From IMG/VR virus record IMGVR_UViG_2698536574_000014: a stretch of 5,733 nucleotides of DNA. One strand, 5' to 3'. Below, in pieces: positions 1 to 3,000 of the stretch. A program made the position numbers. This stretch comes from a virus (taxonomy: Duplodnaviria > Heunggongvirae > Uroviricota > Caudoviricetes). Position 1 is the stretch's first letter. The number at the start of each line of letters is the position of its first letter.

Positions 1-3000
1 CAGACTTTCTATCTCAACGCCATACGCTGCATTTTTTGTAACATCCGTCAGCGTCAGCGCATTCAGTCCCAGTGTCAGACTGTCTTTTATAACCTGGAAT
101 GCCGGGCCAGCCACTCCATTCAGTTTCGGAGTAACCGTGGCACTGCCGGCGGTGAACACCAGCTCCAGCGTCTGCCAGTCGTTACCGTAATCGCCGAACT
201 CCCCCAGCTTCGTGTTTCCGGCTTTCCTGTGATGCATCAGATTCACTCTGCCGTCAGTGGTCTGAGTGAAGTACGACATCAGGAACGGATTACCGGTACC
301 CGTCATCGCCACACCATCAGGAACGGGAGCATCCGTATACAGATAAATCCCCAGCCCGAACTGATTGTTGGTCAGTGCGCCTGACAGGCGGAACTTACAG
401 GTCAGTCTGCCGCCCTGTGTCAGCAGGGTAATTGCGTCATCCACCGGATGCGTCAGGGACCAGGTTTTATTGCTCTGCTTGGTGATCTTAAATACACCAT
501 CTGACAACTGAATTCCGCCATCCTTAATGCTCCAGCCCTGCGCAGCAGCCTCTCCGGCTGCCGGCAGCAGGGAGATTGTGCGAACGGACGTATCTGCAGA
601 CGGACCCGATGGCGTGTTGCCGCCGGGCGAGGGTTTGATTTCCGGTGCCTTACCACTGATGAAGGCTGAGGTGCGCCCGGCTGCGTTCAGAATAGCGGTT
701 GCCAGACGATCCGGAATAATGCTCCTGCGCGCCCATGAACTGAAATGTGTCGGGCGGTTTGATGATACCTGGTTTCCATTCGTTCTCGATGCCGCACCGT
801 AATATCCTGATGCCGGAATATCCGGATCTTCTGCCGGCGCGTTAGTGGCGGTATTGACGCCGTTACCGTCTGTCATGAAGGGCACAAAATAAACGCCCTC
901 ACTCTCCCTGTTTTTGTACGCCCCGTAAATGGTGTTGTACTGGGTGCCGTAGGTATTTTTCCAGTAATACGTCGTGTCACCACAAATCCACGGCACATCT
1001 GCAGCACTGCCACCATGGCACTGCGCGTTAAACACGGAGAGGTCAGCACGAAACTGTGTCAGCATGGCTGTAAACAGCGCAGGTTGCTGTGCGTGGGTGG
1101 CGGCGCTCATGTCAAACTCTCCCTGCATCCAGCACACCGCCAGCAACACATTTTTCGGGTTCTTCTGTAATGCAGCTTTGGTGCGCGCAATCAGGTCCTG
1201 ATATAACGGTTTACCCACACCCCAGCGCGCCGAATCCTGGCTGGCCCCCGTGTCCGCACTGAATGTCCCCTCCGCGCCCTGGGTAAATGCCGAACCACCA
1301 CGACAGCATGGTACCAGCAGGATCCCCGCGTTATTCGGGATATACGGGAGCAGTTTTTTGGCAATATGTAACCCCTGGCCGACACAGCCGTACTGCCCTT
1401 TGCTCAGGTCTGCCTTCGGATGATTCAGCGTACTCATATCCTGCACATCATGCAGGCAGTGGTCGGCCGGAATAATATCGTTATATCTGCAGGCAGCCCC
1501 ACCCGGCGTAACTGTACTGCGGCGCGCCAGCTGTTTANNNNNNNNNNNNNNNNNNNNNNNNNNNNNNNNNNNNNNNNNNNNNNNNNNNNNNNCGATGACG
1601 TAGTACCAATCCGGCTCAGTTGCACCACTGACCACCACATCACCTTCTGCTGTAATCGCCTGCATCAGGGTATAAGGGGTTATGGCCACCGGACTACCAA
1701 ACGGCTGCCAGCCCTCTTTCAGTTTGTGTGTCAGCTTTTCCGCAAGGTCTGACGGCGACGCCGCCCTGACAACATCATAATGTTTAAATGTCATTATTCC
1801 TCCCGGCCGGGATAGTGTATTAAATCAGATATGGAGTGGGCTGTAGTCCGGAAGCCTGAATGACACACGGGGACTACAGCCCGAAATACGAAAAAGGCCG
1901 CGCAGTTGCGCAGCCTTATGAATCCTGGTTAAAATCCGCACGATAAAAATGACAATGCAAGTATCTCATGCTGTTGCCCGAACCCACTCGGGCTTTTTTT
2001 TGCATGTAAAAAGGCTCCTGCGATGAGGAGCCTGGATATATGCCTAATCTCTGTATACAGCATGATGCCGGGTGCCTCCCGGTGAGTTCGGCCTGGTGCC
2101 ACCAAACCCGCGTATTCTCGCTTACGATCATCAAAGAGATCATACCGTTCACCAGTCGCCCCTCCGCACAGGGGGATTCACCATGCAGAAATTTTCTAAC
2201 ACATCTATTATCAGACCGGCAACAACTGACTGAATTGAGATGTATTTAACATTTATGAATCTCCGCCTGCTATTTTCACTGAGCTATTCTGAGTCAACGA
2301 AAAATAACTTCGCTGAATCCCCCTCCATTATGACAGGCATTAGTTTTAATGGTTACAGTCATCCCCGTAATTTGCGCACTGAGAAGAAGAGACTGAAGAT
2401 TCCATCTGTTGGTAAATAATTCTTTATCACCCACTTTAACTGTAAAGGTATCGTCATCATTATATTTTGTATACTCCACCTTTCCAGTTACACAATCAGG
2501 CGTCGCCAGCGCACTTGCTGAAAAAAATGAAAGCGATGCAGCTATTAATAATGTTTTTTTCATTTTACCCCCTCAACTGCTAATAGTTCTGCGCATCAGA
2601 ATTGCCCCCAGAGTGGATGAATCCCACAATATTTTATTGTGCGTAATCCCACGGACTCTTCCATCTGCCGGACACATAGAAGGAAACTCATCAGATGCCA
2701 TTCTGGCAACTCGCGATGCATGATGATGACAATTCAGTATTAATGCCACGCTTCCCAGAATTGCATTAATGCTTCCAAAAGAAATTCTTCCTACACGAAC
2801 AGAGTCTTGTCCATGATAGTCAGGCAGGACGCTACTCAACCTTCCCCAGTTCAATGTAAGATCAACATCTTCAGCAGTCATTACATAAGAACGCCCACTG
2901 AGATCATCCAGTGTTGTACGAAATCCCCTCTGTATTTGCCGAAAACGTAAAGCTTCAGCTGTCACAGTAACAAACCGTAACATCGCTCTTGCCACAGACT

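Follow-up and report, generated by a model that had tools for sequence, protein, structure and literature searches.

A copy of the small RNA gene EcOnc03 between stx1B and the esterase gene of an Stx1a prophage

The small RNA locus downstream of stx1B

The DNA analysed here, called the window throughout, is a 5,733-nucleotide stretch from a virus of the class Caudoviricetes (IMG/VR record IMGVR_UViG_2698536574_000014). It represents the late-regulatory region of a Shiga toxin 1a (Stx1a) prophage, and a Pfam scan placed all of its genes on the minus strand. Between the gene for the Shiga toxin B subunit, stx1B (2297-2563), and a gene for a sialate-esterase-type (nanS-p-type) protein with DUF1737, SASA and DUF6645 domains, which runs from its start codon at 1794 to the window start, lies a 499-bp gap (1795-2293). 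This gap holds a plus-strand small RNA (sRNA) gene at 1941-2001. The preliminary description of the window had predicted a plus-strand RNA of about 60 nt here and had left it unassigned. The prediction was correct and the RNA is not new: judged by its sequence, it is the known EcOnc03, third member of the AsxR/AgvB family of anti-sRNAs.

Two intrinsic terminators face each other within the gap, as had been proposed. A terminator scan over 1700-2400 returned three sites, compared with 0.5 +/- 0.7 in 50 shuffled controls. The EcOnc03 terminator (1976-2001, plus strand), found by the scan and by folding, is a hairpin, GCCCGA-ACCCAC-TCGGGC, at 1976-1993, with a G+C-rich stem of 6 bp and a loop of 6 nt, and is followed by a T8 run at 1994-2001. 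On the opposite strand, the terminator at 2007-2033 has a hairpin at 2033..2012 followed by TTTTT (fold z = -4.12). It had been described as the end of the stx1AB mRNA, and it presumably does end stx1AB transcripts that are not antiterminated. This is not its sole role, for it is also the 3' end of an STnc100-family sRNA.

That convergent partner is 214 nt long (2215..2002, minus strand), lies in the 3' region of stx1B and matches Rfam model RF02076 over its full length (1-206 of 206; 190.7 bits against a gathering threshold of 47, E = 8e-45). It is a homologue of EcOnc27/EcOnc28 and sRNA103 and is related to PasD; overexpression of sRNA103 raised fimZ. A distance of at least 3 nt separates the 3' end of its terminator from that of EcOnc03, so the two RNAs do not overlap. 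By Rfam scan, members of the STnc100 family also lie opposite AsxR in prophage Sp5 and opposite EcOnc03 in prophage Sp9. The locus is the 'convergent sRNA dyad' known from the literature, which in lambdoid prophages lies between a moron, stx1AB in this case, and the esterase gene. Just past the stx1B stop (2216-2293, minus strand), we noted by eye a candidate promoter for the partner, ATGTTAAATA, which is extended -10-like and some 28 nt upstream of where the Rfam model begins; its position would fit the 235/247-nt bands reported for the homologue EcOnc27. Alternatively, the STnc100-family RNA may be processed from the stx1 3' untranslated region.

Identity of the plus-strand RNA

The EcOnc family was described by Tree et al. 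2014 (Mol Cell 55:199; PMC4104026), who used Hfq UV-crosslinking in E. coli O157:H7 Sakai and found EcOnc01 (AgvB), EcOnc02 (AsxR) and EcOnc03 to be the most abundant unannotated Hfq-bound RNAs. These RNAs are 51-60 nt long, with about 42 nt in common at the 3' end and 14-18 nt that differ at the 5' end, and 'convergent sRNA' pairs were reported between a moron coding sequence downstream of PR' and a conserved phage open reading frame (ORF) in Sp3, 4, 5, 9, 10, 11, 15 and 17 (PMC4104026). EcOnc03 itself gave peaks in all five Hfq crosslinking and cDNA analysis (Hfq-CRAC) datasets, contains ARN motifs and was classed as 'Destabilised' in delta-hfq (PMC4104026). On Northern blots it ran as bands of 56, ~54 and 51 nt. 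Its 5' ends are heterogeneous and triphosphorylated, and those of the family were mapped by RNA-ligase-mediated rapid amplification of cDNA ends (5' RLM-RACE) (PMC4104026).

Positions 1947-1997 of the window are identical at 51/51 positions to the published EcOnc03 sequence AAATGACAATGCAAGTATCTCATGCTGTTGCCCGAACCCACTCGGGCTTTT (Tree et al. 2014 Fig. S4; PMC4104026), which is also that of Sp9 in Sakai. The longest form, starting at C1941, would be 57-61 nt; published shorter 5' ends extend to about A1947, and the 3' end falls within the T-run. The window carries the 3' body of the anti-sRNA family, GUAUCUCAUGCNNUUGCCCGAACCCANUCGGGC-U(n), joined to a 5' region identical to the EcOnc03 class. The family is marked by a short RNA of 51-60 nt with its own promoter and intrinsic terminator, by a variable 5' region of 14-18 nt ahead of a highly conserved 3' region of about 42 nt, and by a place in a convergent sRNA pair between a moron coding sequence downstream of Q/PR' and a conserved phage ORF; the locus shows each of these three traits. 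The earlier suggestion of a possible regulatory sRNA of Stx prophages was therefore apt, the sequence being that of a Hfq-binding anti-sRNA.

Searches of Rfam returned above-threshold matches on both strands of the locus. On the plus strand, the AgvB model (RF02702) aligned over its full length (1-62) to 1941-2000, at 56.6 bits against a gathering threshold of 56 (E = 5.2e-9), two pairs of the model's 5' hairpin being non-canonical. The AsxR model (RF02703) scored 46.8 bits on the same stretch, under its threshold of 63, while genuine AsxR of Sp5 scores 88.1 bits with it; the Sp9 copy of EcOnc03 gives the same 56.6-bit AgvB score as the window. We did not accept the Rfam match as grounds for calling the RNA AgvB, since its sequence is exactly that of EcOnc03 and the GcvB R1 target motif CACAACA, the basis of the name 'anti-GcvB', is absent from 1941-2001. 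The predicted pairing of EcOnc03 with GcvB (-11.5 kcal/mol) was equalled by 77/150 shuffles. Together with the missing motif, this indicates that the RNA is a paralogue of AgvB and not AgvB itself. Other named prophage sRNAs were also set aside as identities: HnrS, a multicopy prophage sRNA described in 2026, corresponds to EcOnc10/11/12, several kb further into the Sakai late region, and PasA/PasC sit between the esterase and holin genes, outside the window.

Within the RNA, the variable 5' region CGAUAAAAAUGACAAUGCAA (1941-1960) is the presumed class-specific seed, one of three discrete 5' classes on a common 3' body. It is mostly unpaired in the predicted ensemble, with unpaired probabilities of 0.88-1.0 for nucleotides 1-10. 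The family-conserved core GUAUCUCAUGC (1961-1971), recognised by comparison and folding, falls mostly in the loop of a weak predicted hairpin. The fold of the whole plus-strand RNA reaches -13.9 kcal/mol, with z = -1.83 for 1941-2001 and -2.65 for 1947-2001.

Conservation of the gene and its promoter

The proposed promoter, TTGCGC-18-TAAAAT (1906-1935), can be read in the sequence as it had been described. Its -35 element, TTGCGC (1906-1911, plus strand), is followed after an 18-nt spacer by the -10 element, TAAAAT (1930-1935, plus strand), and the RNA start at 1941 lies 6 nt after the latter. An exact-pattern scan of IMG/VR with the common 3' body found at least 120 stretches, of which 119 had enough flank for comparison, representing 26 distinct contexts. 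The -35 context GCGCAGTTGCGCAGCC is present in 26/26 of these contexts, across the AgvB, AsxR and EcOnc03 classes, and the -10 context CCTGGTTAAAAT is unchanged in 119/119 loci. All of these loci share the promoter layout, an RNA start CGAT... 6 nt past the -10 and the terminator of the convergent RNA a few bases downstream. The three 5' classes, AgvB CGATAACAACACAACAATATCA, AsxR CGATTATTAAAACGA and EcOnc03 CGATAAAAATGACAATGCAA, are thus set on a common gene with the same promoter, core and terminator; the hairpins and the promoter are conserved in related prophages. Among EcOnc03-class loci, 7 adjoin stx1 and 22 have no stx gene within 1.5 kb.

A further minus-strand terminator at 1894-1917, absent from the preliminary description, was found by the scan and consists of a 10-bp stem followed by TTTTCGTATTT (fold -18.3 kcal/mol, z = -4.20). 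It sits just past the stretch antisense to the EcOnc03 gene and overlaps the EcOnc03 promoter, so that the -35 element occupies the loop and 3' arm of its hairpin. This hairpin is kept in all three 5' classes; in the AgvB class a G-C has changed to G-U. We also observed a 12-bp inverted repeat, GGGCTGTAGTCC / GGACTACAGCCC, with a 21-nt loop (1838-1882), which lies between the dyad and the start codon of the esterase gene, a short way upstream of that gene's ribosome-binding site. Both this repeat and the terminator at 1894-1917 are kept in related prophages. The repeat showed up in a sub-threshold Rfam alignment to Leu_leader; we regard the Leu_leader matches (28 and 22 bits, threshold 50) as a chance resemblance to a hairpin-plus-terminator layout.

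The EcOnc03 gene is widespread. The gap as a whole (1796-2293, 498 bp) shows 100% identity to BP-4795, YYZ-2008, phi-O153 and many 'Stx1a-converting' phages. Searching INPHARED with the 68-nt gene gave 57 phage records; 46 bear the name Stx1a-converting, and H-19B, H30, BP-4795, YYZ-2008 and Shigella phage 75/02 are also in the set. Among complete E. coli genomes (n=5426), 523 (~10%) carry the gene at >=80% coverage. The annotation under the match was 'none' or 'hypothetical protein' among the matches listed for 57 phage records and 697 E. coli genomes. The absence of plus-strand annotation reported for the window therefore extends to the listed phage and E. coli matches. On sequence comparison, the majority type of Stx1a phage, to which the window belongs, usually carries EcOnc03 at this site, where Stx2 phages have AsxR.

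The Stx1 prophage of Sakai itself, Sp15, is different. We had expected it to carry the same locus, but from ~1912 to ~2070 it has an unrelated cassette without a match to AgvB or AsxR. On both sides of it Sp15 aligns near-identically, from stx1B through most of STnc100 on one side and from the GC hairpin as far as the esterase gene on the other. Its cassette has the same promoter layout, TTGCGC-18-TATTAT. The different cassette in Sp15 explains why EcOnc42 and EcOnc22 appear under 'Stx1 phage' in the literature and EcOnc03 does not. With coordinates shifted by +129, the published Hfq peak EcOnc42 (~271 nt by Northern blot) corresponds to the Sp15 plus strand over the hairpins upstream of the cassette, equivalent to ~1838-2001 of the window. 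A plus-strand isoform of greater length, antisense to the start of the esterase gene, is suggested by this position and might also exist in the present window.

Proposed mode of action and alternatives

We consider it very probable that 1941-2001 on the plus strand is a functional copy of EcOnc03, a 51-60-nt Hfq-dependent sRNA that has its own promoter and lies tail-to-tail with an STnc100-family sRNA. The identity and position of the gene, the conservation of its promoter, and the expression and Hfq binding of an identical sequence have been shown by the present analysis or by earlier work; we infer the expression of this particular copy and its mode of action. In the mechanism we propose, transcription would begin at C1941, or at alternative starts a few nucleotides downstream, from the sigma-70-type promoter TTGCGC-18-TAAAAT and would stop at the intrinsic terminator at 1976-2001, whose hairpin and U-tail would form the Hfq-binding 3' end. 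By analogy with two characterised paralogues, the RNA most likely acts in trans through base pairing on Hfq. The single-stranded, class-specific 5' region (1941-1960) would determine specificity, either as a sponge for a core-genome sRNA or by pairing directly with mRNAs. Of the paralogues, AgvB pairs with the R1 seed of GcvB and relieves repression of dppA, and AsxR pairs with FnrS and raises chuS (PMC4104026).

Several observations weigh against this view. The -35 hexamer matches TTGACA at 3/6 positions only, and for this reason a consensus promoter scan made no call. The 119 homologues are almost invariant in their paired regions and so lend no covariation support to the fold. EcOnc03 was characterised in Sakai from the Sp9 copy, and the Stx1 prophage of that strain, Sp15, differs at the site. 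Finally, in a low-power screen by RNAduplex-type folding, the EcOnc03 5' region found no partner above shuffles among 23 K-12 sRNAs. The screen paired the variable 5' region of each anti-sRNA with GcvB, OmrA/B, McaS, FnrS, MicC, RyhB, MicF, MicA, RybB, CyaR, Spot42, ArcZ, SgrS, ChiX, RprA, DsrA, SdsR, RyeA, OxyS, RydC, MgrR and DicF, using 150 shuffles. It recovered the positive control, AgvB-GcvB, on top (-19.9 kcal/mol, family-wise 0.047). The validated AsxR-FnrS pair ranked first and was not significant, which indicates that the screen has low power. The best EcOnc03 partner was SgrS (-12.3 kcal/mol, family-wise 0.86), through an 11/12 match to the sgrT start region that is expected by chance. 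A sponge mode thus gains no support from this screen for EcOnc03.

The lack of a convincing sRNA partner favours an alternative in which EcOnc03 is mainly a direct regulator of mRNAs. This would be a sub-mechanism of the trans-acting EcOnc03 set out above and not another identity, and we regard it as a serious possibility that still falls short of being the expected outcome. Here the family-conserved loop GUAUCUCAUGC would block translation by pairing over the start codon of eptB, the EcOnc03-specific nucleotides GCUGUUGCCC would pair inside the coding sequence of ompC, and further targets would lie in iron and manganese homeostasis. In vivo hybrids of EcOnc3 with cellular RNAs were recovered by RNase E crosslinking with ligation and hybrid sequencing (RNase E-CLASH) (PMC5286369). 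The hybrids of eptB (ECs4425, which we identified as eptB) involve agvB1 (4), EcOnc3 (4) and EcOnc2/AsxR (5) (CLASH Table EV7; Waters et al. 2017, PMC5286369), and the EcOnc3-ompC (ECs3104) pair is represented by 7 hybrids, in both replicates and both orientations, at a false discovery rate (FDR) of 0, with GCUGUUGCCC pairing with GGGCAACAGC (PMC5286369). The EcOnc3 partners are also enriched for the gene ontology terms cation transport and iron homeostasis, through mntH, fieF and bfr (Table EV6, PMC5286369), and mntH is itself listed among the EcOnc3 hybrids. Against this, the CLASH hybrids are few and lack reporter-assay validation, with FDRs of 0.051 for EcOnc3-eptB and 0.24 for agvB1-eptB; the nucleotides that pair with ompC overlap the terminator stem and are hence structured; and both characterised paralogues are sponges.

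The eptB pairing concerns the whole family. The core GUAUCUCAUGC at 1961-1971 is a perfect 11-nt complement of the eptB start region GCAUGAGAUAC, from -2 to +9 (-18.8 kcal/mol). Against reading much into this, a match of an 11-mer with CAU to some start codon in the genome has, by our own estimate, a chance expectation of ~0.1. The gene eptB encodes a 3-deoxy-D-manno-octulosonic acid (Kdo) phosphoethanolamine transferase and is a known target of MgrR and ArcZ. We found no paper discussing its pairing with the family core. It is a tentative idea, and one we would not bet on, that the invariant core of EcOnc03, AsxR and AgvB is a second, family-wide seed that occludes the eptB start codon. If it were, each prophage with such an RNA, including most Stx1a and Stx2 phages, would retune modification of the lipopolysaccharide core, and the variable 5' ends would add class-specific targets, which for EcOnc03 may be ompC and iron/manganese genes, echoing the Fur control of stx1.

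We think it unlikely that the plus-strand RNA, or its transcription, acts in cis, by pairing or colliding with late transcripts antiterminated by Q, or with STnc100 transcripts that read through and cross 1941-2001, and so modulating how the esterase and lysis genes downstream are expressed or how the stx1 3' region is processed. The position fits: as the preliminary description had pointed out, the RNA would be antisense to late read-through transcripts. The EcOnc03 gene is fully antisense to minus-strand transcripts that pass the terminator at 2033..2007, and the second minus-strand terminator (1917..1894) lies exactly beyond the gene, overlapping the -35, in a layout kept in all classes. 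The review literature also gives no known reason for the dyad arrangement. The known relatives, however, act in trans on core sRNAs and not as antisense to the late transcript. AgvB and AsxR have shown trans targets (GcvB and FnrS), the 5' regions vary in discrete classes as would be expected of trans seeds, and the mature EcOnc03 and STnc100-family RNAs do not overlap.

That the hairpins are only a bidirectional terminator or insulator shielding the late operon and stx1, with a promoter matched by chance and no functional RNA, is very improbable: back-to-back terminators are common between convergent units and the -35 match is weak and uncalled, but an identical sequence is among the most abundant Hfq-bound RNAs in enterohaemorrhagic E. 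coli with triphosphorylated 5' ends just downstream of the promoter, a 51-60-nt plus-strand RNA is already on record from the Sp9 copy, which is identical, the promoter and a 35-nt body outside the terminator are kept across 119 loci, and the above-threshold Rfam match covers the whole RNA and not the hairpin alone.

The main value of the assignment of the window RNA to EcOnc03 lies in annotation, as it places a validated, abundant Hfq-binding sRNA ~290 nt from stx1B in the common Stx1a phage type. What the present analysis adds is modest: EcOnc03 as the usual Stx1a-phage resident, the lack of an RNA label in the matches listed, and eptB, ompC and metal-homeostasis mRNAs as candidate targets from CLASH. 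Should EcOnc03 prove to take part in iron or envelope regulation, it would connect the toxin phage with the physiology of its host, as AsxR does for haem use.

Other features of the window

The remaining genes recognised by Pfam lie upstream of the dyad in the direction of minus-strand transcription. They encode a KilAC antirepressor (5253-5729), NinG (4648-5250), NinH (4457-4648), the antiterminator Q (4030-4461) and the Shiga toxin A subunit, stx1A, with its ribosome-inactivating protein (RIP) domain (2576-3520), all on the minus strand. The esterase gene is interrupted by a masked run of 55 N (1538-1592); the two sides differ in reading frame by one base, which means that the number of N does not give the true length.

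Between Q and stx1A, we observed the StxS/EcOnc15 sequence (3747-3829, minus strand), a PR'-proximal short transcript that ends at the tR' terminator GCCAGCC...GGCTGGC-T6. The CLASH read halves assigned to EcOnc15 match the window exactly at 3829..3768, and Rfam gave no match over 3747-3829. About 110 nt upstream of the stx1A start lies a Fur-box-like site, GAAAATGATAATCATATTC (3630-3648, plus strand), that agrees with the consensus GATAATGATAATCATTATC at 16/19 positions. The stx1 genes are under iron (Fur) control, and the site fits this known regulation. No tRNA genes were found in the window. The Q-stx1A interval (3530-4029) differs in this respect from the Stx2 prophage Sp5, which has ileZ-argN-argO, and from Sp9, which has ileZ-argO.

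Comparison with known systems

The minus-strand partner has its own relatives among the STnc100 / EcOnc27 / sRNA103 / PasD-related sRNAs (RF02076; Zhu, Shabalina and Storz 2026 preprint). The RNA at 2215..2002 belongs to this group over its full length; the comparison concerns the partner and not EcOnc03 itself.

The closest counterpart of the plus-strand RNA is EcOnc03 of Sakai Sp9 (PMC4104026), with which the window agrees at every position, both across the 51 nt in print and across the 60 nt that Rfam scored. The two loci share the promoter, the terminator, the STnc100-family partner and a downstream esterase-type ORF. They differ in the moron upstream of the dyad, which is stx1AB in the window and a DNA methylase with tRNAs ileZ/argO in Sp9, and in a few flanking substitutions: CCGCA in the window versus CCACA in Sp9 before the start, and GAGGAGCC versus GAGAAGCC in the terminator of the partner. 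AgvB (EcOnc01a/b, RF02702) of Sp10/Sp17 belongs to the same family and has the same architecture. Its terminator loop is ACCCAU where the window has ACCCAC, and it carries the GcvB-target mimic CACAACA, which the window RNA does not.

AsxR (EcOnc02, RF02703) of the Stx2 prophage Sp5/933W occupies the same site as the window RNA, 3' of stxB, antisense and tail-to-tail with STnc100/EcOnc27. The two RNAs share the promoter, the core GUAUCUCAUGC and the terminator hairpin GCCCGAACCCACUCGGGC. They part in the 5' region, CGAUUAUUAAAACGA in AsxR and CGAUAAAAAUGACAAUGCAA in the window, and the validated partner of AsxR is FnrS. EcOnc03, described from the non-toxin prophage Sp9 of Sakai, is the usual Stx1-phage counterpart of the Stx2-phage AsxR.

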